The notes beneath the pieces are model-generated. The model was not told where the DNA came from, searched no databases, and worked only from the letters and a program-made list of their open reading frames with translations. 64,000 nt of DNA, taken from NCBI GenBank assembly GCA_963787125.1, contig CAWBBV010000001.1, positions 416,001 through 480,000 on the forward strand, read 5' to 3'. The position numbers and the translations under genes are program-made. The stretch's first letter is position 1. Every line of letters starts with the position of its first letter. Positions 1-12,544 of the stretch are shown here, piece by piece. This stretch comes from an uncultured delta proteobacterium. GTDB lineage: Bacteria > Desulfobacterota > Desulfuromonadia > Geobacterales > DSM-12255.

Positions 1-832
1 AACACACAGCGTTGTCTGGATCATCGGAGTTGGCGGCATCGTCACCGGCCGGCGCAGACTGCTGAGCTATTTCAGTGAGCGAAACAGGGCTGAAAAAGAG
101 AAGCTGGCGCTGGAGTTGCGTCTACAGCAGGGGCAGAAACTGGAAAGCCTGGGTGTATTGGCCGGCGGGATCGCCCATGATTTTAACAACATCCTGGCAA
201 CGATCATCGGCCACTGCGGTATTTTGCAGCTCAGGCCGGAAAAGGTTGCGAAATGTGTCCCGGAGATCGAGAGCGCTGCCGAGCGTGCCGCGGCACTCTG
301 CCGTCAGATGCTGGCCTATGCCGGCAAGAGCCAAACTGTTATGTCCCGGTTCGATATGACAATTCTGGTGGCTGAGATGGTTGCAATGCTGAAAGCGACC
401 ACCCCGCAGAATGTGGTCATTAACACAAATCTTGCGACTGATGTTTTGCTGGTTAAAGGCGATAGTGAACAGTTCAGGCAGATTATCATCAATCTGCTCA
501 CGAATGCTGCCGAGGCGATCGGTGCAGCAGAGGGAGAGATACGGGTATCACTGACAAAAACAGAAATAATGGCAGGAGATTTGGTTAAGGATCATCTTGG
601 CAGGATCATTCCGGCGGGTAGCTATGCCTGTCTTGAGGTAACTGACACCGGCTGCGGCATGGATGCTGAAACCAGCAGCAGGATTTTCGAACCATTTTAC
701 ACCACCAGGTTTTTTGGCCGCGGCCTGGGGTTGCCCGCGACTCTCGGCATCATTACCGCCCATAAGGGGGCGGTGCAGCTACACAGTCAGCCGGGACAGG
801 GAACGACGGTCAAGGTCTTTCTGCCCGTATAG
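1..832 (+). CDS. Membrane-bound sensor histidine kinase, 5'-truncated by the window edge (HisKA + HATPase)
   Basis: Frame is open from nt 2 (THSVVWIIGVGGI, hydrophobic). H-box AGGIAHDFNNIL, N-box NLLTNA, G-boxes DTGCGM and GRGLGL. Confidence 0.9.
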   Translation, partial: THSVVWIIGVGGIVTGRRRLLSYFSERNRAEKEKLALELRLQQGQKLESLGVLAGGIAHDFNNILATIIGHCGILQLRPEKVAKCVPEIESAAERAAALCRQMLAYAGKSQTVMSRFDMTILVAEMVAMLKATTPQNVVINTNLATDVLLVKGDSEQFRQIIINLLTNAAEAIGAAEGEIRVSLTKTEIMAGDLVKDHLGRIIPAGSYACLEVTDTGCGMDAETSSRIFEPFYTTRFFGRGLGLPATLGIITAHKGAVQLHSQPGQGTTVKVFLPV

Positions 833-854: not shown

Positions 855-2438
855 TCAGCCTGCCAATACCGCTCTGATTTTTATCGCCAGATCGCTGATG
901 GAGCACGGTTTCTGGATAAATTGCACCCCTTCTTCCAGCACCCCATGATGGGCGATGACGTCGGCTGTATAGCCTGAGGTGAAAAGGCACTTCATCGCCG
1001 CTCTGGTTGGTCTCAGCTTCTCAGCCAGCGTTCTGCCGTTCATCCCCGGCATCACCACATCAGTTATCAGCAGGTGTATCTCGCCGGGGTGCTCAGCGCA
1101 AAGGTGGATCGCTTTGTCCGGGGAGTCGGCTGCCAGCACCTGATACTCGAGCATTTCCAGAATCTCACAGGTCATCTGTAACAGCGACGGTTCGTCCTCC
1201 ACCAGTAGAACTGTCTCACCACAGCTTTTTGGGACCGCTCTTGAAGCTGTTTCCTCTGCGGCGGGAACCTGCCCCGGATGCCGCGGCAGGTAAATTCTGA
1301 AGGTTGTCCCCTGTCCCGGCTCGCTGTAGACATTGATGAAGCCGTTGTTCTGCTTGACGATGCCGTACACCGTGGCAAGTCCGAGGCCAGTACCTTGTCC
1401 AACCTCTTTAGTGGTAAAGAACGGTTCAAAAATCTTTTCCTGTGTCTCCTTGTCCATGCCACAGCCGGAATCGCTTATGGCAAGCATTACATACTCTCCC
1501 GGAACAAGTTCAGCATGCTTTGCGCAGTCAGCCTCGTTAAAAACAGTATTACCTGTCTCGATAATGAGTTTGCCGACATCAGGAATGGCATCGCGGGCGT
1601 TGACACAGAGATTGGCAAGGATCTGATCTTCCTGGGAAGGATCCAGCTTGACCGGCCAGAGGCCCGCTCCGGGCAGCCAGGTGAGCTCGATGTTTTCACC
1701 GATCAGACGCCGGAGGATTTTCAGCATCGCTTCCACGGTCTCGTTCAGATCAAGTACCTTGGGGACAACTGTCTGTTTTCTGGCAAAAGCCAGCAACTGT
1801 CTGGTGATGCCGGCTGCCCGTTCGGCAGCGTTACTTATGCCGCGCAGCTCTTTTTGCAGCGGGTGATCCGGCGCAATTTTCCGCGTGGCCAGATCGACAT
1901 TCCCCAGAATCACTCCAAGCATATTATTGAAGTCGTGGGCCACACCACCGGCAAGCCGGCCGATTGATTCCATCTTTTGCGCCTGAATAAGCTTGGCTTC
2001 GAGCAAGGCCTTCTCTTCCTCTGCCAACCGGTGTGCAGTCCGCTCCTTGACTTCACTGAGCGCCCGCTCAATCACCATCGAAAGCTTGTCGAGCCGCTCC
2101 TTGGGGAGGTAGTCAGTCGCCCCCTCTTTCAGGAGCTGCACCGCTTTTTCTTCACCAATAGCGCCGGAAACACAGATGAACGGTACTCCGGGGCAGAGCG
2201 ACTTCGTCAGCCGCAGCGCCTCCGTACCCTCGATACCGGGAAGGTGGAAGTCGGCAAGAACCAGGTCGTAGCCGCCGCTATGCAAAAATGCGGTAAACTG
2301 CTGCTCGTTGGCAGCCCAGTCAAGCTGGCAAGAAAAGCCGGCGTCGGTCAGCCGCTCCCTGATAATTTCCGCGTCAAGCGGTGAATCTTCAAGATGCAGA
2401 ATCTTCAGCGAGTTGAGGGCGTCAGTTTCAGCGATCAT
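855..2438 (-). CDS. Hybrid response regulator/histidine kinase (REC-HisKA-HATPase-REC)
   Basis: N-terminal REC (LHLEDSPLD...LADF), [15 protein letters not shown]-terminal REC (LLVEDE...ITDVVMP). ATG at 2438 overlaps the upstream stop. Confidence 0.93.
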
Positions 2439-2886
2439 GCGTTGAACCCCCTTGTGGCGGCAGTTCATTCAGCACGGCCCAGAAAACGCCGACATGCCTC
2501 ACCGCCTCGACAAATTCCGAGAATTTGACCGGTTTGACCACATAGGCATTGACCCCCAGATCGTAACTGCGGATCAGATCATGCTCTTCCCGTGAAGAAG
2601 TCAGCATCACCACCGGGATCATTTTCAGCGTTTCATCAGTACGAATTGCCCGCAGAACATCGATGCCGTCCATGCGCGGCATTTTGATGTCCAGAATCAC
2701 CACTGCCGGGTTGCCGGGCTTGCGTCCGCTGTATTTCCCTTCGCAGCGCAGATACTCCATCGCCTCCACGCCGTCCTTGACGTGGGTGACCAGATTGGCC
2801 AGGTTGTTATCGGCCAGGGCCTCCAGAGTCAGTTCGACATCACTGGGGTTGTCTTCTGCAAACAGAATCGGTTTCAGTTCAGTCAT
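2428..2886 (-). CDS. Single-domain response regulator (Rcp1-like)
   Basis: [31 protein letters not shown] motif. Confidence 0.93.
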
Positions 2887-5800
2887 GGTTTTCTCCTTGT
2901 ATTTTAGGCAATGTGAAGTAAAAACTGGCCCCGCGGTTCAGTTCGGCCTCAGCCCAGATCCGGCCACCATGACGGGCAACGATCCGCTGGACGGTGGCCA
3001 GACCGATACCGGTCCCCTCAAATTCTTCCAGTGTGTGCAGCCGCTGAAAGACGCCAAAGAGTTTGTCGACGTACTTCATATCAAAGCCGACGCCGTTATC
3101 GGCAACGGTGAAGACAATTTCACCGTTCTCCTCGCGGGCGCTGACCTCAATGCGGGCAGACTCTTTTGTCCGGGTATATTTAACCGCATTATCCAGAAGG
3201 TTGACCCAGACCTGGCGAAGCAGGGCGTAATCGCCCCGGACAGACGGCAACTCCCCGATGACCCATTCGATGGCGCGATCTGAATGACTCGCTTTTAGCG
3301 GCGTCAGCACTTCCTGCAGTGACTGGTTCATGTCCAGAGCTTGCCGCCGCATTTCCGCCCGTCCGGTGCGGGAAAACTGCAGCAGGTCGTCAATCAGCAC
3401 CCCCATCTGGCGAGCGGCAGAAGCAATGGTGTCCAGATAGTGCAGCCCTTTATCGCTGAGACCGGCGCGGCAGCGGGAAATCAGCAGCTCCACATAACCG
3501 TCAATATGCCGCAAGGGGGCGCGCAGATCGTGGGAGACGGAGTAGCAAAACGCTTCCAGCTCCTTGTTGGCAGTTTCCAGCTGACCTGTTCGCTCGATAA
3601 CCCGTTTTTCCAGTTCGGCGTTCAAACGGTGGATTTCTGTCTCGGCTTTTTTCCGTTCGCTAATTTCTGCCTTGAGTGATTCGTTGGCAACTTCCAGCTC
3701 TTCCGTTCGCTCTTTTACCCGATGCTCCACCTCGTCATAGGCTTTTTGCAATTCTCCCTGGGTGCGCTCCAGCTTCTCCTTCTCCCGTTGCAGTTCAGTG
3801 TTGACCAGTTGCAGCTGCTGAGGACTGGGGATAGAGAGGAGCCTGGGGAGTACGGGCCAGACAACGATTGCTGTTGCCAGTGAAACCAGGGCAGTGAGAG
3901 TGTCTACGGCTGCCTGCCACCAGTCAACCGGCCACCAGAGACCGACCACATGGACAAGATGGGTCGTACCGCAGGCAAGAATGAAAAGTCCGAAGAGGAC
4001 AATAATCCAGGAAAACGGCAGGTCTTTCCGTTTTCTGACAAACACCACCAGGAAAAAGGGGATGGTCGCGTAGGAGACGGCGATCAAAGCATTGGCAATG
4101 GCCATGGTCATCATCAGAAGCGGGGGCATGGTACCGGCCTTTGCTCCCTGGATTTCCATGGTGCCCGGCATGAAGACCATCGGCGCTATAATGAGAATAG
4201 CCAGAGCGGCTGCCGGGGCGATGACTCTCGGCACAAGTTCCAGCGTTTGCCTTAAAAGAGATTTGGGCGGGGCAAAGGTCTGCACTTTGTAAGCCCGTAA
4301 GCGGAGGCTGTTGGTCACCACGAAAATCGAGCTGAACGCCATGGCTCCGGCAGCGAACATCGGGATGAGCAGGCCATAGGCAGCAACCGGGATGAGGGCA
4401 ATGTTGTAGAACAGGGCCCAGATCAGATTCTGGACAATGGTCTGGGATGTTGCCCGGGAGAGTGAAATAGCCCGGCCGACGCCGGCGAGATCACCGCTGA
4501 TAAGGGTGATGCCGGCAGCGGCCATGGCTATGTCGGTACCGGTGCCGATGGCAATGCCGACATCAGCCTGAGCCAGTGCCGGAGCATCATTGATGCCGTC
4601 ACCGACCATCGCCACGGTAGGCCGGGCAAAATTGCCAAGGCTGCTCACAGCCTGTAACTGTTTTATCGCTTCGGCTTTTTCGCCGGGCAATACTTCGGCC
4701 ACGACCCGGGTTATCCCGACCTGAGCGGCGATCGCGTCAGCAGTGCTCTGGTTGTCACCGGTCAGCATGACAATGTCGAGACCAAGTTGGCGTAGATCGG
4801 CAATTGCTTCCCTGGCGCCCGGTTTCACCGTGTCTGCAACTGCGATCAACCCTATCGGCCTGGCAGGTTCATTGCCCTCCACCCGGCTGACGGCGACGAT
4901 CATGGCGGTCTTGCCTTCGGCTTGCAGTCTCATGATGTCAGTCTGCAGCTTATCTACAGCGATCCCTTCATTTTGCATCATCCGCGGATTGCCGATGATC
5001 ACGGCTGTATCCGCCACTATCGCCCTGATGCCAAAACCGCCGAAAGCACGGAACTGTTCCGGAGAGCCAAGCGCCAAACCCTTATCCTGTCCGGCCTTGA
5101 CGATGCAGCGCCCTAATGGATGTTCCGAGCCAAGTTCAGCGCTGGCCGCCAGGCGGAGAACTTCGTCGGCAGGCAGATCATGGGTAGGGATAATATCGGT
5201 AAGAGCCGGTTCTCCCCGGGTGATGGTGCCGGTTTTATCAAATACAACGATATTGACGCGGCCGGCCCGTTCGAGGATTTCGCTGCTTTTGAAGAGAATC
5301 CCGCTTTGAGCCCCTCTGGAGGTGCCGACCATGATGGCAGTCGGTGTTGCCAGGCCGATGGCGCAGGGGCAGGCGATAACGAGAACCGCAATGGCATTTA
5401 TCATCGCACCGGTCCAGGGGATATGGACGACATAAAGCCAGCCGAAGAAGGTAGCCAGGGCAATAGCGATGATGATCGGCACGAAATATTTGCCGATTTC
5501 GTCGGTCAGCTTCTGGATAGGTGCTTTGCTCCCCTGGGCTTCCTGCACCAGTTTTGCTATCTGTGCCAGGGTACTGTTCTTGCCGACCTTGGTGGCTTCG
5601 AATCTGATCAAGCCTTCGCGGTTGATCGTAGCGCCGATGACTTCATCGCCGGGACCTTTGCTGACAGGCATCGACTCACCGGTGATCATTGCTTCATCAA
5701 AGGCCGAGCGGCCTTCACTGATGATGCCGTCAACAGGGACTTTTTCGCCGGGGCGGACGACCACGCTATCGCCGACCAGAACCTGTTCAACGCTGATCAC

Positions 5801-6715
5801 AGTTTCAACGCCGTTCCGCACTACGCAGGCTGTCTTGGCGCGCAGTCCCATCAACGCCTTCAAGGCCGCCGATGTTTTACCTTTAGCGCGGGTTTCCAGG
5901 TATTTGCCGAGCTTGATGAGAGTGATGATGGCCGCGCCGGTTTCGTAATAAACATTGGGACTGCTGATGATGCCGATGGTAACGAGCAGGCTGGAAAAAT
6001 AGGCGGCCGAAGAGCCCATGGCGATGAGCACATCCATGTTGGCACTACCGAAACGGAGGCTCTTCCAGGCGCCGACGTAAAATTGCCAGCCGACGATAAA
6101 TTGGACGACAGTCGCCGCCAGGAGCATGATAACTTGATCGTATTTAAAAGCGACGCTGATAAAGTCCCGCGCCATGCTGAAGATGATGAGCGGTATCGTA
6201 AAAATGAGCCCGATTATCAGTAAACGCCCCTGTTTTTCCAGTTCGGCGGCGCGCAGTTGAGCTTCTACGTCTTCTACCTCTTCGGATTCACCCGCCTGGA
6301 CAAGATCAAAGCCGGCGCTGCGGATGATTGCGGCCAGTTCGGCAACCGAGGTCACGCCGGGGATATACTCAAGCGCTGCCCGCTCGACACCGTAGCTGAC
6401 AGTGGCGACAAGGACTCCGTTTTGCTTGGCCAGGAGTTTTTCCAGCGTCAAGGCATCGGTATGATCCTGTAACCCGGTAATCGGCAGAGTTATCTTGCCG
6501 GTGGCAACGGCATAGCCGATCTTTTTGACATGGGCAATGATATCGGTTTCGCTCAGCTGGAGCGGGTCAAAACTGATATTCAGTTTTTCACTGGCAAAAT
6601 CGACACTCGCGTCGCTAATACCCGGCAATTTACGCAGATTAGACTCGATTCTCAGGGCGCAGTTGGCACAGGTCATGCCGGTAACAGGCATGGTGGTGCT
6701 CTCGGAAGGGGTCAT
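2879..6715 (-). CDS. Fusion: Cu(I)-translocating P1B-type ATPase + ethylene-receptor (ETR1-type) membrane sensor domain + histidine kinase
   Basis: ATPase: GMTCANC, TGES, CPC(449-451), DKTGT(D493), SEHP, GDGIND, YN, MAFSS. Sensor: [12 protein letters not shown]...FILACGTTH...TALVSLATA. Kinase: [11 protein letters not shown](H1062), NLLDNA, DNGVGF, GTGIGL. One uninterrupted ORF with RBS GAGG. Confidence 0.92.
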
Positions 6716-6752
6716 TCTTACCTCTTGAAATTTCTATGGTGCAGCAAATTAT

Positions 6753-8864
6753 TTAAGCCGTCAGGTGAACTGCGTCACTCCCCAGCAACTCATGCACCTT
6801 GGTCGCCAGAGCCTGTAACGTGTAAGGTTTCTGAATGAAATGCACCCCTGTATCCAGCACGCCATTGTGGGCGATTATGTCGGCCGTATATCCCGACATG
6901 AACAGACATTTCATTTCAGGCCTGAGCGGGCGGATTTTTTCGGCCAGATCCCGACCGTTCATGCCCGGCATCACCACGTCGGTCATCAGCAGGTGAATCA
7001 CCCCCGGATGTTCTGTTGCAATCCGGAGTGCCTCGAACGGGCTGTTTGCGGGTAGTACTACATAGTTATTAAATTCCAGAATCTCCCTGGTCATTTCCAG
7101 GAGTGTCGGCTCATCCTCAACTAAAAGCACAATCTCGCCGTGTCCCATGGCGGCTTCTGCTGCAGCCGGTTCCAAGAGCGTTGCGCCATGGACAGTATGC
7201 CTGGGCAGATAGATGTTGAACGTCGTTCCCTGTCCCGGCTCGCTATAGACATTTATAAAGCCTTTGTTCTGCTTGACGGCGCCATAAACCGTGGCGAGTC
7301 CCAGGCCGGTTCCCTTGCCGGTCTCCTTGGTAGTAAAAAATGGTTCGAAGATATGGGCCAGTGTTTCCCTGTCCATACCGTAGCCGTTGTCGCCGACAGT
7401 CAGCCGCACATACTCTCCGGGGACAAAGTCCGGGTCCTGGGGGGTGTAAAACTGGTCGAAGCTGCTGTTGCCGGTTTCAATGATAATCTTGCCGACGCCG
7501 GAGATCGCATCCCTGGCATTAACACAGAGATTGGCAAGGATCTGATCGATCTGGGACGGATCTGCCATCACCGGCCAGAGCTTTGCGGCCGGCTGCCAAC
7601 TGAGTTGAATGTCTTCGCCGATAAGTCGCTGCAGCATTTTGAGTGTGCTTGCTACCGCGTCATTCAGATCGAGATTTTTCGGGACAATGGTTTGTTTGCG
7701 GGCAAAGGCCAGCAGTTGCCGGGTGAGGTCGGCGGAGTGTCTGGCGGCGGTGCGGATTTCTTCCAGGTCAGCACGCAGAGGCTGGGACGGCTCCAGCTTC
7801 ATTAGCGCCAGATCAGCACGGCCTATAATGACAGTCAGCATGTTGTTGAAGTCATGGGCAACTCCGCCTGCCAATCGACCCACTGATTCCATTTTCTGCG
7901 CCTGCAGCAGCTGGGATTCGAGTTTAGTCCTCTCCTCCTCGGCACGTTTGCGTGCGGTGATATCCTGGATGAAAGCCACTATCTGTCCGTTTTCATCTGA
8001 GCGGTACTGGGCGCTGACTTCGACGTCAAAAACGGTGCCATCCTTGCGGCGCTGCCGCGATTCAAAGCGATCCGCTCCCCGTTCCCTGACTAAGCGGATG
8101 TGAGCAGCTGTTCCTTCGGGCGACTCTTCAATTTCGATATCACTGATACTCATGGACAACAGCTCTGCCATGCTGTAGCCGCTCATCCGGCAATAGGTCA
8201 TATTGACCTCGATAAAGTGCCCCTGGGTGTCTACCAGCCAGATTCCATCCATGGCTGTCTGCAGGATAGTCCGGTGGTGTTCTTCGCTCTTGCGAAGTTC
8301 AGCGGTACGCTCCTCCACCCGCTGCTCCAGTTTCTGCGACTGTTGCTCAATCTGCCGAAAGGCGAGCGAGTTTTTGAGCGCCAGGGTGATCGGCGGGGCA
8401 AGCAGAGTGATGATCCGGTCTGTTTCGCCAATCCGCTCCAATTCCGGCAGATCGAAGAGTAGCAGCATGCCGACCAGTTCACCACCCACCCGCAACGGAT
8501 AGCGTGCCATTGACTTGATGCCGGCCCGCAACAGCTGGCTACGCAAAGGATGATTCAGAGTCAGCTCTTCCGGATAAAACGGTAGCGCTTCGGGACTTGT
8601 TTCAGGACAAAACGTATTCAGTTCAAGTGGGGAAAAGAGCGTGGCTCGCCTTGCCGGGCTGACATTCAACAGTTCGTCTGTTTCAGTTTCTGCGTGGTGG
8701 GCAATAACCATAACTGTTCTGGCTCCGGTCAGTTCGCGCAGATGTTCTGTCAACGCCACGCCCAGTTCATACGGTGAGGTGGAAACCAGCAGTTGCGAGA
8801 TCACCTCGATGGCCATCAACTGGGCAGCAGGTGAGAACTTCTGTTCGTTTTCAAATGCTTTCAT
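6753..8864 (-). CDS. Hybrid sensor histidine kinase (GAF-like, PAS, HisKA, HATPase, REC)
   Basis: N-terminal GAF-like fold ([15 protein letters not shown]), PAS ([10 protein letters not shown]...RRKDGT), AHDFNNML, C-terminal REC. ATG at 8864 forms an ATGA overlap with the DUF1638 stop. Confidence 0.9.
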
Positions 8865-9469
8865 GGCGTCTCCCCGGCAACCCTGCAAAATTTTGCCTCG
8901 GCTCGGGCTGCCAGCAGTGCTGTCAGCATACTGTCCAGTGTTACCGTTTCAACCCGCCAGGGGAGCCCGCTGTAGGTCGAAAATTCTGTCAGCTGCAGTT
9001 CAGGAACCGGCAGCAGGCCGGTATCAAGATATACCAGCACCCTCCGGTTTTCTCCCATGAGCCCCTGCGCAACCTCTTTGTTCAGCCCCAGTTCGCTCTT
9101 CATGATATATTCCCAGCGCCGGGCCCATTCCGGCAGAACCAGAAAGGCCTCTTCACGCATCAGTTGGCGATAGCGATCCCGTCCCAGCAGCAGCTGCGCA
9201 CAGTTGATAACATTGACCCGACCCACCTGAAAACGGCGCACCAGGTCGAGCATCCGGGCGGTGCAATCGCCATAGACGAGCACCAGGCAGCCGGTCTCGT
9301 CAGTTCTCTCAGTAAGCGCTGTGTGCAGCTTCGCTTCGAGTTTCGGGGGGTCCATATGCAGCATAGAGTCGAGAAAAAGCAGTTTGCCGCCGATAAGCCG
9401 GCGGCGGTGCAGCTCCTCCATCTCTGCCCGTACTACGCCGCAACTGAGCCAGACAGTACGCTCCGTCAC
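8861..9469 (-). CDS. DUF1638-family protein
   Basis: SCGVVRAE, LDSMLHMDPPKL, VYGDC, NCAQLLLG pattern. GTG at 9469 forms a GTGA overlap with the upstream stop. Confidence 0.75.
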   Translation of the reverse strand: MTERTVWLSCGVVRAEMEELHRRRLIGGKLLFLDSMLHMDPPKLEAKLHTALTERTDETGCLVLVYGDCTARMLDLVRRFQVGRVNVINCAQLLLGRDRYRQLMREEAFLVLPEWARRWEYIMKSELGLNKEVAQGLMGENRRVLVYLDTGLLPVPELQLTEFSTYSGLPWRVETVTLDSMLTALLAARAEAKFCRVAGETP

Positions 9470-10500
9470 TTCCCGCACCCCATCTCCCCGGAATAGTCGG
9501 CAGCGGCAGCCTGCATGGCGCGCAGATTTCCGGGTGGCGTTGCCTGTGGCATATCGGCGCCTGCATTGGCCAGAATGTAGTGCCCGGAAGGCGCAGCCGT
9601 CCGCAGGCATGCCATGCTCAGCGCATACACCTGTTCGGGAGTGGCCGTCGGCATGGTCAGATTGTCCAGGTTGCCGATAATGGTCAGGTCAGGCCCAAGT
9701 AACTGTCTGGCTTCGGCCAGATCATCCTTTGAACCGGCAATAATCCCGACCAGGCCGTCTGTTCCGGGGAGCAGGTCAAGGACGTGATTCATGCGGCCGC
9801 CGGTGCTGCTGATGACTTTGGGGCCATTTATCCGGGTAAAAACAGCCTGGAGGTGCGGCAGGAACTGATCGACAAAGATGCTGCGCGGGGCTACTGCCGA
9901 CGTTGCCATCCCTTCGGTAATGACCAGGCAGTCGGCGCCCGCGTCAAGCAGGGCATTAGCCCAGGCGATTAAAAATGGCGACGTATACTCCAGCAGGCTC
10001 TGAGCCAGCTCTTTATCAAAGAGGACCGCTTCCATCCACTGTTCAATGCCGACAAGCAGAGACGGGAGAATGCCGGGTCCGGGAAGAACGCTGATGATCG
10101 GCGCTTGCCCCTTGTACAGCTCCGCCAGCTGCCGGTTTGTCTCAAGTATCATGGGCAGACGACCGGTGCATAGGATATCCGGAAGCGGTAATGAAAGGGC
10201 GTCAACAGCCTTTCTCGCTGCCGGTCGTTTCATGTTGGGAACCTGATCAGCAGACCAGGCCACCTCGCCCCCAAACGCTTCCGCAATGGCGCTGTAGTCA
10301 AAAGCAGTCATCACCAGATCAAAGCCGAACTCCTTTTGGAGCGCTTTTTGACCGGCCACGTAGGCGGTTGCATCGCTGTACAGAGTCCGCAAATCGGTGT
10401 TTGTCAGCTTGCCACCGTAAGCGCCGAGAACGGCAAAGACCGGCAACCTGTCAACCGGTTGCCCGGAAAGAGTATTCATGACCCGTTGATATGAATTCAT
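9466..10500 (-). CDS. UroD/MtaA-CmuA family methyltransferase-fold protein
   Basis: PVDRLPV start, AEAFGGEV, IIGNLD, TPPGNLRAM end. Adjacent to a corrinoid protein; no HemE RQAGR motif. Confidence 0.85.
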   Translation of the reverse strand: MNSYQRVMNTLSGQPVDRLPVFAVLGAYGGKLTNTDLRTLYSDATAYVAGQKALQKEFGFDLVMTAFDYSAIAEAFGGEVAWSADQVPNMKRPAARKAVDALSLPLPDILCTGRLPMILETNRQLAELYKGQAPIISVLPGPGILPSLLVGIEQWMEAVLFDKELAQSLLEYTSPFLIAWANALLDAGADCLVITEGMATSAVAPRSIFVDQFLPHLQAVFTRINGPKVISSTGGRMNHVLDLLPGTDGLVGIIAGSKDDLAEARQLLGPDLTIIGNLDNLTMPTATPEQVYALSMACLRTAAPSGHYILANAGADMPQATPPGNLRAMQAAAADYSGEMGCGK

Positions 10501-11165
10501 GATAGCACCTCTTGCCGGGCTTCACGCTGTAGCCGCATGAAAAGTTCATCGGCGGCAACGGCATTATGGGCGCTGCCATCACCACCTACTTCCGCCACCA
10601 GCTCCGGACGCCAGTTGAAGACTGCACCGCCGACCGCCAATTTAATCCGGCCACTTAATCCTCTGGCGTTGATCAGTTCACGCAGTTTGCAGATGTTCAG
10701 GGCAGTGGTCTGCATCATGGCAGAAGCGCCGATCACACAGGCATTGACCTCAAGCGCCTTTTCCAGAAACTGCTCGGCCGGCACGTCATTGCCCAGGTCG
10801 TAAACATCCCAGCCTGCTGCAGCCAGAAAGAGACCCACGGTTTTGCGGCCAAGACTGTGAAAATCATCCTCGATGTTGCCGATCACAACTGCGCCTTTGC
10901 TGTGACGGTCAGAACTATTATCCGGGACACAGCGAAGCAGAGTGTCTTCCGCAATTTTTGAGGCAACAAAGTTCTGCGCTAACGACATGGTCTCTTCTTC
11001 CCACATCTTGCCGAGTTCGATGATAGCCGGGTCGAGGATACTTTCAATGACCTGCACGGAATCAAGCCCTGTGGCAAGCGCGTTTTCAATAATCCCTTTA
11101 GCACCGGCGCGATCAGCATTTATCATGGCGGTAAGCAACTGTTCACTGAAATCGGCAGGCTTCAT
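10497..11165 (-). CDS. Cobalamin (corrinoid)-binding protein (cap domain + B12-binding Rossmann domain)
   Basis: DFHSLG (DxHxxG), DLGNDVP, GASAMM, AVGGA. RBS AGGAG. Confidence 0.92.
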   Translation of the reverse strand: MKPADFSEQLLTAMINADRAGAKGIIENALATGLDSVQVIESILDPAIIELGKMWEEETMSLAQNFVASKIAEDTLLRCVPDNSSDRHSKGAVVIGNIEDDFHSLGRKTVGLFLAAAGWDVYDLGNDVPAEQFLEKALEVNACVIGASAMMQTTALNICKLRELINARGLSGRIKLAVGGAVFNWRPELVAEVGGDGSAHNAVAADELFMRLQREARQEVLS

Positions 11166-11356
11166 ACGGCAGACTCCTTAATCTAAGGGAAGAAATAATG
11201 GTTAATCTTGTTCGTCTTTAATCTTAGCAATTTTTTTTTAAAATGTAAGAAGTATTGCTTAACTTTACCCGCTAGATCCATTTTAGTCATTACAATGCCT
11301 GAGGCGAACGGCAAGCAGGCATACTGTTTTATTTACTCCGCATTTCATGCTATTGT

Positions 11357-12544
11357 TTGCGATATTTCTTACAGGAGACCATTGTGCGCACATTATTCTG
11401 CTGTCTGTTTGCCTGGCTGTTTTTTACAGTTTTGCATGTATCTGCTGAAGAGGCGGTGCCGCTTGCTGAAAAAGAGGGCAAATGGTCTTTTTCCATGAGT
11501 GACGATAGTAAAGTCCTGAGCAAGGAGCGCTTTAAAAAGCAGCAGAACTCGCTGCGGGATATCTCCGCCATTATCACTGCATCAGCGGCGATGAATCCTC
11601 CCAAAGGGTTCGAAGCCAGATTCTGGGGGTCAGTCACCGCCAAAGACAGATATGATGCGTGCAGCGGGAAAAAATGTCCGCCGTCACGGCCGACTGCCAC
11701 TCTGGCAATGATGCTGGGCCGCTATGAAGAGAACAACGGCAAGGTCAAAGCGGCCTTTAACACACCAGCAACAATGGATATTTCCATCAACAACCTGGGG
11801 CACCTCTTTGCCAACCTTCCCGTCCTTTTCAAAGATGCGGAAGGGTATCTGCTGCCGGAACCAAAGCCGGACGGTGAGCGTGCCGGGATGCGTACCTACG
11901 CGAACAATGGCCATGCCGTTGCTGTCATGACCAGCAATGACAAACCTCTGTGGCAACCTGTCAGCCGGGAAAGATACCTGAAAGCCGCCATTGCAGCTGC
12001 AGCTAAAAGTGCGGGGATGCCGCCGAAGCCGGTTAAAAAGGGTAAAAAGCAGAAGGCTGTCGAGATCAGCGGCAATCCGGTGATGATAGAAGAGAGCAGG
12101 AGCTGGATCGATCCGGCCGAGGAGAAGCGGTGGGTAGAAAGCAGCCGCTCACTTGCCTTTGAGATGAAGGAGTCGGTTGAGGTGCTGCAAGCCAGGTTGC
12201 AAAAGCTTCAGGCTGAGCTCGAGGCAATGCCGGCGGAACAAAGGAAAATGCCGGCAAGAGTGGAGTTCATCACCGCTGCCGATGGGGAAAGCGCGTCACT
12301 CCTGGCTGCTGACAGCAGCGCAGGGGTTGCTGTTGTAACCCCTGATTTCAGATACTTCAACCAGAAGCTGCCATTTGAGGTAATTCAACTTCTGGTTGTC
12401 CAATGGAAATTTGAGGGTAATCAGCTTTATGACCCTGACAAGCCAGGCATTACCGAAACCCTTAACAATAAAAAACTCCTGGAAACCTACAAGAGTATGG
12501 ATTGGCAGAAACTGCGCAGCAAGGTCACTCGAACTGGGCCTTGA
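11357..12544 (+). CDS. Hypothetical exported protein
   Basis: 395-aa ORF with an N-terminal hydrophobic signal-like segment; no recognised motif. Confidence 0.7.
   Translation: MRYFLQETIVRTLFCCLFAWLFFTVLHVSAEEAVPLAEKEGKWSFSMSDDSKVLSKERFKKQQNSLRDISAIITASAAMNPPKGFEARFWGSVTAKDRYDACSGKKCPPSRPTATLAMMLGRYEENNGKVKAAFNTPATMDISINNLGHLFANLPVLFKDAEGYLLPEPKPDGERAGMRTYANNGHAVAVMTSNDKPLWQPVSRERYLKAAIAAAAKSAGMPPKPVKKGKKQKAVEISGNPVMIEESRSWIDPAEEKRWVESSRSLAFEMKESVEVLQARLQKLQAELEAMPAEQRKMPARVEFITAADGESASLLAADSSAGVAVVTPDFRYFNQKLPFEVIQLLVVQWKFEGNQLYDPDKPGITETLNNKKLLETYKSMDWQKLRSKVTRTGP

Follow-up and report, generated by a model that had tools for sequence, protein, structure and literature searches.

A seven-gene signalling string in a Geobacterales genome that probably joins a corrinoid/GAF-kinase cassette to a copper-pump/ethylene-domain fusion kinase

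We analysed a 64,000-nucleotide (nt) stretch, hereafter the window, of an uncultured delta proteobacterium of the Geobacterales (assembly GCA_963787125.1, contig CAWBBV010000001.1, positions 416,001 to 480,000 of the forward strand), and focused on a string of seven minus-strand genes, g1 to g7, in which four genes headed by a corrinoid protein (g1-g4, cassette A) precede three genes (g5-g7, cassette B) headed by a protein that joins a copper-transporting P-type ATPase, an ethylene-receptor domain and a histidine kinase in a single frame. A first-pass annotation made from the letters alone had proposed these seven genes with their junctions and domain order, all of which were confirmed by open reading frames (ORFs), direct reading of the strand and Pfam. 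The genes and the stretch that precedes them are as follows.

11166-11340, minus strand: AT-rich stretch ahead of g1 that includes the ribosome site AAGGAG in front of its ATG (GC 0.489 for 11001-12000)
10497-11165, minus strand: g1, corrinoid (B12-binding) protein with cap and Rossmann domains, 222 amino acids (aa; PF02607 and PF02310)
9466-10500, minus strand: g2, MtaA/CmuA-like protein of the URO-D fold, 344 aa (PF01208 at 1.6e-47)
8861-9469, minus strand: g3, DUF1638 protein, 202 aa from a GTG start (PF07796)
6753-8864, minus strand: g4, hybrid kinase, 703 aa, GAF-PAS-HisKA-HATPase-REC (Pfam)
2879-6715, minus strand: g5, HMA-E1E2_ATPase-HAD-ETR1_N-HisKA-HATPase fusion (P0001), 1278 aa (Pfam)
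2428-2886, minus strand: g6, single-domain REC of the Rcp type, 152 aa (Pfam and solved relatives)
855-2438, minus strand: g7, REC-HisKA-HATPase-REC, 527 aa (Pfam)

Read directly on the strand, the junctions are ATGA between g1 and g2 (10497-10500), GTGA between g2 and g3 (9466-9469) and ATGA between g3 and g4 (8861-8864), followed by a gap of 37 nt between g4 and g5 (6716-6752), an overlap of 8 nt between g5 and g6 (2879-2886) and one of 11 nt between g6 and g7 (2428-2438). The longest ORF of g3 extends to 9610, and the GTG start chosen here is backed by orthologues, in which the conserved N-terminus starts at that point, overlapping the g2 stop by 4 nt; for g4, which starts with ATG, the longest ORF begins upstream at a TTG (8888), and g7 has an additional ATG at 2468. 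A consensus scan of the 37-nt gap returned no terminator-like and no sigma-70-like site, and in the region as a whole terminator-like sites were not commoner than in shuffled sequence (12 versus 11.2). The promoter of the whole string probably lies in the AT-rich stretch at 11166-11340, and the seven genes could plausibly share one transcript here, given the short gap, the lack of a visible terminator and the replacement of the ancestral g5 promoter region described below. Among indexed sequencing runs no RNA run contained this sequence, and a single sediment DNA run shared a few words with it, which has no bearing on expression or habitat. Pfam found no DNA-binding domain in any of g1-g7, in agreement with the first-pass annotation, which had seen no DNA-binding output.

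The central protein, g5, can be divided into four parts.

4286-6238, minus strand: ATPase core, residues ~160-810, with TGE345, CPC449-451, D493KTGT, SEHP530, GDGIND705, YN770 and MAFSS792
4138-4225, minus strand: one additional membrane helix (residues 831-849) followed by the Met-rich loop (hydropathy, Met count)
3830-4117, minus strand: ethylene-binding domain, residues 867-962 (PF25487), with Asn875, Tyr882, Cys915, His919 and Asp938
2903-3553, minus strand: kinase core, HisKA (H-box SHDLR at residue 1061) and HATPase (Pfam, motifs)

Like CopA, g5 carries an HMA domain with CxxC (a single N-terminal one, C16ANC) and intact catalytic and membrane metal-site motifs, and it scores well above the family cut-offs (565.9 bits against 397 for TIGR01511, 622.2 against 346 for TIGR01525). 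We take this motif set, the YN and MxxSS of the last two helices among them, to mark the Cu(I) P1B-1 class, and by its sequence g5 is a complete CopA-type Cu(I) P1B-1 pump, that is, a predicted transporter. Unlike CopA, it has ~470 extra C-terminal residues that make up a linker helix, a receptor domain and a kinase, with a coiled coil between ETR1_N and HisKA. Hydropathy gives 8 + 1 + 3 helices for pump, linker and ETR1_N domain; since the pump ends in the cytoplasm and the receptor domain is N-out, an odd number of linker helices is required, and g5 has one. The loop that bridges pump and receptor domain holds 7 Met in 26 residues (846-871), at positions kept in the fused rows of the receptor-domain alignment. 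The kinase of g5 resembles the model of Leptospira LvrA (NF047465) and g7 that of LvrB, with scores so far under the cut-offs (252.9 bits against 1200 for g5) that neither is a member. The earlier reading of g5 as a fusion of copper ATPase, ethylene-receptor domain and kinase is therefore backed by Pfam, TIGR01511 and motifs alike.

The receptor domain of g5 belongs to the ethylene-binding family at 108.9 bits (PF25487, ETR1_N; gathering threshold 27), covering profile positions 2-97 of 97. Like plant ETR1 and the bacterial ethylene receptors SynEtr1 and AzoEtr1 (both named in PMC11819568), g5 has three ETR1_N helices with the copper-binding Cys and His and a Tyr, followed by a histidine kinase, and the equivalents of Cys65, His69 and Tyr32 are Cys915, His919 and Tyr882; unlike in those proteins, the domain is internal, after nine helices, and not N-terminal. 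The canonical Asp25/Lys91 pair is absent, its positions being occupied by Asn875 and Asp938. When 26 in-frame fused domains were set against nine unfused ETR1_N domains taken from genomes within the order, 26/26 fused rows retained the helix-1 Tyr and both copper-site residues, Cys and His, and the same 26 rows all read Asn at the Asp25 position and Asp at the Lys91 position, a combination seen in 0/9 of the unfused domains, which keep Asp and Lys in every case (9/9). Counted from the Cys, Asn stands at -40 and Tyr at -33, and Asp stands at +19 counted from the His. This register is shared by 121/121 proteins, comprising P0001 and the 120 matches listed in the family search below; it rests on spacings of 40 residues from Asp25 to Cys65 and 19 from His to Lys, as in AzoEtr1 (PMC11819568). 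A second difference from the unfused forms is that their N-terminal Cys/His-bearing segment is replaced by the Met-rich loop. Evolutionarily, the fused domains form one clade (support 100/98) on a long branch, with 62-98% identity among themselves and 28-48% to unfused domains. As a reference, 93.55% of 1,221 sequences are reported to have Asp25 and 3.67% to have Asn there (PMC10266040). The exchange may amount to a relocation of the site's carboxylate, from helix 1 onto helix 3, with the chemistry of the site preserved.

The fusion is not peculiar to this genome. A search with g5 residues 800-1000 returned 367 proteins at E <= 1e-3, and among the 120 matches listed, E1-E2_ATPase and ETR1_N occur together in 112 (precomputed Pfam column) and DKTGT is present in 113. 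An assembly chimera was considered for g5 and rejected, as the same frame recurs in more than 100 independent records; several of the fusion proteins are encoded on contigs of 4-5.8 Mb. In their source records, family members are named just "heavy metal translocating P-type ATPase" or "Cu+-exporting ATPase". We recovered 30 genome loci, which by their record titles span about eight phyla and include Geobacter, Desulfuromonadales, Syntrophobacter, Bacteroidota, Ignavibacteriota, Chlorobiota, Lentisphaerota, Acidobacteriota, Sumerlaeota and one bin labelled Clostridiaceae; one of the 30 (L030) matched the final 23 query residues only and is not a fusion, and two (L028, L029) are partial. The pump part is 54-84% identical between phyla, an unusual degree of conservation that sets the family apart from CopA. 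Within the order, the window's arrangement, a fused frame of ~1285 aa, is found only in the window's genome (G000) and its congener G012, the remaining ETR1_N genes being unfused. A standalone CopA of 747-761 aa is present besides the fusion in 4/6 fusion genomes checked (G631-G634), and the fused pump is thus an extra copy in most hosts. In G000, which is 99.96% complete, g5 is the sole match above the TIGR01511 cut-off, and the fusion is likewise the sole CopA-class pump above it in G012 (G012:C123:7450-9246), the other P-type ATPases of both genomes scoring <=102 bits.

Downstream of the fusion, the two receiver genes recur. A g6-like REC follows at E <= 1e-30 (tblastn) in 18 of the 30 loci, and Pfam on 59 downstream ORFs showed a single REC of ~145 aa and then a REC-(PAS)-HisKA-HATPase(-REC) protein in most loci with enough flank (L001, L005, L007, L009, L012, L017, L019, L020, L022, L024 and L027, with variants in L004, L008, L010, L018, L021 and L028). 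The proposal that g5, g6 and g7 form a conserved relay lacking DNA-binding output is supported by this recurrence. The label "Rcp1-like" given earlier to g6 also held, its best solved relatives being phytochrome response regulators (5brj at 1.8e-51, 5ic5 at 1.3e-50, RcpA 1k68 at 1.6e-31 and Rcp1 1i3c at 5.6e-23, compared with ~1e-11 for CheY). Cassette B accordingly resembles Cph1-Rcp1 and bacteriophytochrome pairs in having a kinase core with a [12 protein letters not shown] H-box and then a single-domain Rcp-type receiver, and differs from them in that g5 is without a bilin-binding photosensory module. Beyond g7, a further histidine kinase gene (HisKA and HATPase; window 2-832, plus strand), open at the window start, converges on the g7 end, the two stop codons being 22 nt apart.

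Upstream of the fusion, the neighbours are heterogeneous (48 ORFs scanned). Some features of individual loci can be noted. A DsbD_2 membrane protein lies directly upstream in three loci (with HMA in L003:6401-7444, plain in L013:6641-7480 and with a cupredoxin-like domain in L014:6106-7329) and may act as an accessory copper-handling protein. In a metagenome-assembled genome of the Prolixibacteraceae (L027:7604-12282), the fusion is divided into an 863-aa pump ORF and a 696-aa ETR1_N-PAS-GAF-kinase ORF that overlap by 4 nt, which is either a natural split form or an assembly frameshift. A PocR-domain kinase adjoins an ethylene-domain gene in two unrelated loci, namely a Bacteroidota fusion (L012:12551-14293) and a cassette A genome, G001 (L072:8199-10589), which is described below.

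Cassette A is conserved in its own right as well. As its marker we used the N-terminal part of g4 (g4N), searched at E <= 1e-30 in 239 genomes of the order:

8280-8864, minus strand: cassette-specific N-terminal GAF domain of g4, residues 1-195 (g4N survey, model)

The marker is present in 29/239 genomes, and each of the 19 matches in a first sample of 151 genomes lies directly after a DUF1638 gene. With the window left aside, 28 other genomes and two metagenome contigs provide 30 cassette A loci; a metagenome scan with g3 gave only those two, and the survey rests on the whole-genome searches of the order. The gene order g1, g2, g3, g4N is found in 27/30 loci, the exceptions being a contig that begins at g4N (L083), a g2 match with a stop codon (L098) and a g3 match with 84% coverage (L099). 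At the protein level, g1 combines cap and B12-binding domains with a DxHxxG motif (D101-F-H103-S-L-G106) that is invariant in 30 orthologues, as expected of a corrinoid protein, and scores 111.1 bits against TIGR02370, under its cut-off of 215.3. g2 falls below the MtaA/CmuA-level models (123.3 against 235.4 for TIGR01463, 147.6 against 244 for NF004889) and agrees with the fold-level Pfam URO-D model only. When g2 is aligned to MtaA (4ay7), the positions of the His-x-Cys ... Cys set, which we take to be the zinc ligands, read Ser, Thr and Ala, and the consensus of 29 g2 orthologues is His-x-Thr with no Cys at the third site. g3 is a clear DUF1638 member (82.3 bits for PF07796, gathering threshold 27) whose Cys10, His38, Cys69 and Cys90 are invariant among orthologues; these four potential ligands are a hint of a metal or Fe-S site. 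Its AlphaFold model (predicted local distance difference test, pLDDT, 89.9) found no convincing PDB match, the best Foldseek hits (E 4e-4, template modelling (TM) score <= 0.44) being two-lobed proteins of the periplasmic-binding/LacI type. The g4N model (pLDDT 85.9) is a GAF fold ending in a long helix, with bilin-binding GAF domains as top matches (TM ~0.6) and other GAF domains scoring alike; covalent tetrapyrrole binding was rejected, no Cys or His being invariant in 31 sequences. Folding g1, g2 and g3 with g4N gave a best complex score of 0.21, against a mark of 0.32.

Two neighbours of the cassette in other genomes, and one gene located elsewhere in the window's genome, can be recorded here. 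In a metagenome contig, two multicopper-oxidase ORFs follow cassette A in the same direction (L077:12966-15619), a copper-related neighbour, and in G083 the cassette is directly preceded by a co-oriented gene for a type-II cation P-type ATPase (Cation_ATPase_N/C, 871 aa; L091:869-3484). The only RACo/RamA-type activase homologue of the window's genome (L111; G000:C7:239934-240698; PF14574 at 2.1e-53) contains one in-frame TAA.

How the two cassettes came together can be read from the same-genus relative G012 (L001/L074), which carries a fusion with a pump part 84% identical to that of g5, followed by orthologues of g6 (77%) and g7 (67%). Nucleotide alignment (blastn) matches L001 4892-5659 to window 13165-12398 and L001 6070-6734 to window 11993-11341, upstream stretches that hold a DUF480 gene and a 395-aa gene without assigned family, and resumes with L001 6813-7100 at window 6728-6441, which contains the ribosome site and start of g5. 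In the relative, the DUF480 gene, the unassigned gene and g5 follow one another directly, and the window differs by one segment and its seam.

6729-11340, minus strand: segment absent from the same-genus relative, consisting of cassette A and its own upstream region (blastn; L001 has ~78 bp there)
6716-6752, minus strand: g4-g5 spacer, the cassette seam, 37 nt, homologous to the g5 leader of the relative only in the ~13 nt nearest the g5 ATG

Neither DUF1638 nor g4N was found anywhere in the G012 genome, and cassette A is present in 0/7 other genomes of the genus. These alignments are most simply read as cassette A having been inserted in the lineage of G000. By separating the start codon of g5 from its promoter region, the insertion would have displaced the old leader, and transcription of g5-g7 is now probably by read-through from the promoter of cassette A. 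The 395-aa ORF at the edge of the segment (window 11357-12544, plus strand; L001:5513-6688) has no Pfam match, adjoins the DUF480 gene and is divergent from the signalling genes.

From these results, we consider it likely, with moderate confidence, that the seven genes are not one conserved two-metal machine but two self-contained signalling cassettes that were joined recently; the parts of most interest are the fusion family, marked by its Asn/Asp site, and the cassette of corrinoid genes and GAF kinase, and the seven-gene operon is a lineage-specific join of the two. Cassette B would be the older resident and cassette A a separate four-gene unit inserted later. In cassette B, the g5 pump would load Cu(I) into its own receptor domain, as plant RAN1 supplies ETR1. 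Binding of ethylene, or of another small unsaturated molecule like it, to that Cu(I) would alter kinase output, and the signal would pass from g5 to the receiver g6 and to the N-terminal receiver of g7, which, itself a kinase, may relay it to partners encoded elsewhere. In cassette A, the His-on corrinoid protein g1, the zinc-less g2 and the DUF1638 protein g3 would set the state of a protein-bound cobamide or report on it, and the dedicated GAF domain of g4 would read that state. Any coupling of the two signals in this genome could come from co-expression and perhaps also from the near-identical kinase-receiver cores of g4 and g7.

The first-pass annotation had instead proposed an integrated sensor, in which a cobalamin branch and a Cu(I) branch converge on one phosphorelay for volatile C1/C2 compounds, and had named ethene, methyl halides and methyl sulfides as candidate signals, which are guesses. 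Several features are in keeping with it: all seven genes are co-oriented with coupled junctions, the 37-nt spacer has no terminator-like site, the replaced g5 leader probably leaves g5-g7 reliant on the cassette A promoter, and the kinase-receiver cores of g4 and g7 are 64% identical over 396 aa, which may point to a common downstream partner. That core is not specific to this pairing, however, as genomes lacking cassette B also have it in their cassette A kinases (59-66% identical to g7). Across genomes, moreover, the two elements largely go their own ways. g1, g2 and g3 were found (tblastn, E <= 1e-5) in 0/30 fusion loci, 22 of which have >= 7.4 kb upstream of the match and hence room for cassette A at the window's spacing, and G012 carries cassette B alone. 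ETR1_N occurs in 36/239 genomes of the order and cassette A in 29/239, and both in eight (G000, G001, G083, G100, G118, G145, G601 and G602), where 4.4 would be expected if they were independent; 21 of the 29 cassette A genomes are without any ETR1_N domain, and 6/8 genomes with both carry them on separate contigs, adjacency being possible in the fragmented assemblies of G601 and G602. A phylum-wide ETR1_N search gave 4/401 genomes, too sparse for an adjacency test. The synteny survey thus shows each cassette conserved separately, and the claim of one conserved two-metal system is not supported, the lack of co-occurrence elsewhere that had been named as counting against it being largely what we found. 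One part of the proposal did find a parallel: in G001 (L072), an unfused kinase with a canonical Asp/Lys ETR1_N domain (7087-8202) is followed by a PocR-PAS kinase (8199-10589), g1, g2, g3, the g4N kinase and one REC, with 4-nt overlaps at most junctions. By its differing gene order and receptor subtype, this arrangement looks like an independent event. With 70 HisKA matches in G000 and 135 in G001, a rough estimate is that ~0.06 chance adjacencies would be expected in the seven other genomes with both elements (G000 left out), where one was seen, related genomes not being independent; we regard it as a weak hint of a real link. Overall, the integrated sensor seems improbable to us. An ordinary catabolic or biosynthetic corrinoid methyltransferase operon, for instance one for a methylated substrate or for methionine synthesis, with g4 merely the kinase of its transcription-level regulator and not a sensor that probes by way of the corrinoid, is an explanation of cassette A that we likewise hold to be doubtful. 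g1 and g2 do resemble methyltransferase corrinoid proteins and MtaA/CmuA, DUF1638 is required with a split methionine synthase in Phaeobacter (PMC5764234), and the dichloromethane mec cassette also combines a PocR kinase with a corrinoid protein and an MtaA/CmuA enzyme (bioRxiv 10.1101/2021.08.30.458270), all of which would suit such an operon. Yet g1 and g2 lie under the NCBIfam cut-offs, g2 lacks the zinc ligands, the gene maps of 30 loci place no substrate-specific MT1, MtrH-type enzyme or activase within the cassette, and the cassette always ends in a dedicated-GAF kinase with no cognate DNA-binding regulator conserved.

For g5 itself, the alternative with most to recommend it is a copper "transceptor", in which the signal would be Cu(I) occupancy of the receptor site and the relay would report copper load or export flux and not a gas. 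The Asn/Asp pair, universal in the fused clade (121/121 proteins and 26/26 aligned domains), fits it, as do the existence of family members without any kinase and the DsbD_2 proteins just upstream in L003, L013 and L014. The Met-rich loop can be likened to periplasmic Cu(I) relay motifs, which it presumably resembles, and with the fusion as the only CopA in this genus, a copper-sensing role stays alive. Asp25 and Lys91 have been described as a coupled pair, and ETR1 D25N shows minimal copper binding in vitro (PMC10266040); for a metal sensor, a site that binds more weakly and reversibly would be fitting. Against it, no conserved copper-resistance gene or DNA-binding copper regulator stands beside the fusion, whose 48 upstream ORFs are heterogeneous, and the separate housekeeping CopA in 4/6 genomes checked suggests a fused pump dedicated to its receptor. 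The conserved Rcp-type REC and REC-kinase also differ from what we take to be the partners in CusRS/CopRS systems. We therefore judge the copper transceptor a serious possibility that is nonetheless rather unlikely. The preferred reading, of a self-loading receptor for a small unsaturated molecule in a cassette of independent origin, has its own difficulties. Two key positions of the canonical site differ in the fused class and, given that D25N lowers copper binding in ETR1 and, in Arabidopsis, lowers ethylene affinity ~100-fold (PMC11971883), ethylene may not be the ligand; ~24 of the 120 matches listed are without the kinase ATPase domain, some of them cut by contig ends; in G000 and G012, copper export must be a further task of the fusion, or could even be its main one; and the G001 operon tightly links an ethylene-domain kinase with cassette A, contrary to full independence.

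Relative to known systems, g5 puts into one polypeptide what plants divide between ETR1 and RAN1 (HMA7), a P1B-type ATPase whose interaction with the ETR receptors is described as a route of copper supply (PMC6656775). Cassette A is like MtaABC, MtgABC, CmuA and mec in having a cap plus DxHxxG corrinoid protein, a URO-D-fold partner and a co-encoded sensor kinase, and the PocR kinase of the mec cassette, MecA, has a counterpart in G001, where a PocR kinase stands directly before g1; it is unlike all of these in lacking the g2 zinc ligands, MT1, MtrH and activase and in always including DUF1638 and a GAF kinase. DUF1638 has been genetically linked to B12 reactivation for split methionine synthase, with its specific role left unassigned (PMC5764234; PMC12478193), and at the Phaeobacter inhibens locus of split methionine synthase and a RamA-like protein, DUF1638 adjoins a protein with B12-binding cap and domain (PMC5764234), as in cassette A. 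Unlike that locus, cassette A has no MetH methyltransferase pieces, and the RACo-type homologue of this genome is encoded elsewhere and carries the in-frame stop noted above. We found no description of the corrinoid/DUF1638/GAF-kinase cassette in the literature, and none of a CopA-ethylene-domain fusion, although supplementary lists of receptor homologues (Binder group) could already include such fusions.

A bolder account, which we put forward only tentatively and would not expect to hold in full, is that the fusion is a self-metallating gas receptor that arose once, with its carboxylate moved from helix 1 to helix 3, and spread by transfer among copper-poor anaerobes of about eight phyla, and that two or more Geobacter-like lineages brought an ethylene-domain kinase and a cobamide GAF kinase into a shared operon that co-reads ethylene and a corrinoid-alkylating C1 compound. 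Anaerobic methylthio-alkane metabolism yields ethylene and a methylthio compound as paired products, and these could be read together by the cell.

The fusion bears on how ethylene receptors acquire and retain Cu(I), a question that is still unsettled: the bacterial cytoplasm has been described as unfavourable to spontaneous Cu(I) insertion (PMC12643061), and a polypeptide holding both pump and receptor makes copper delivery addressable by point mutants. Crystallisation of the ethylene-binding domain was reported as unsuccessful, with no solved structure (PMC10968091), and g5, at ~140 kDa, is a more tractable target for cryo-electron microscopy. The universal Asn/Asp swap offers a natural experiment on residues with a proposed role in determining ethylene affinity and in signal transmission, within a family whose sensory half is invisible in present annotation, which gives pump names only. 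Cassette A, for its part, is a conserved candidate for signalling via a protein-bound cobamide, and would give DUF1638 a second, non-metabolic context. If the proposed self-loading is true, the fusion may show how such receptors get their copper and serve as a "Rosetta stone" for the hand-off from RAN1 to ETR1.

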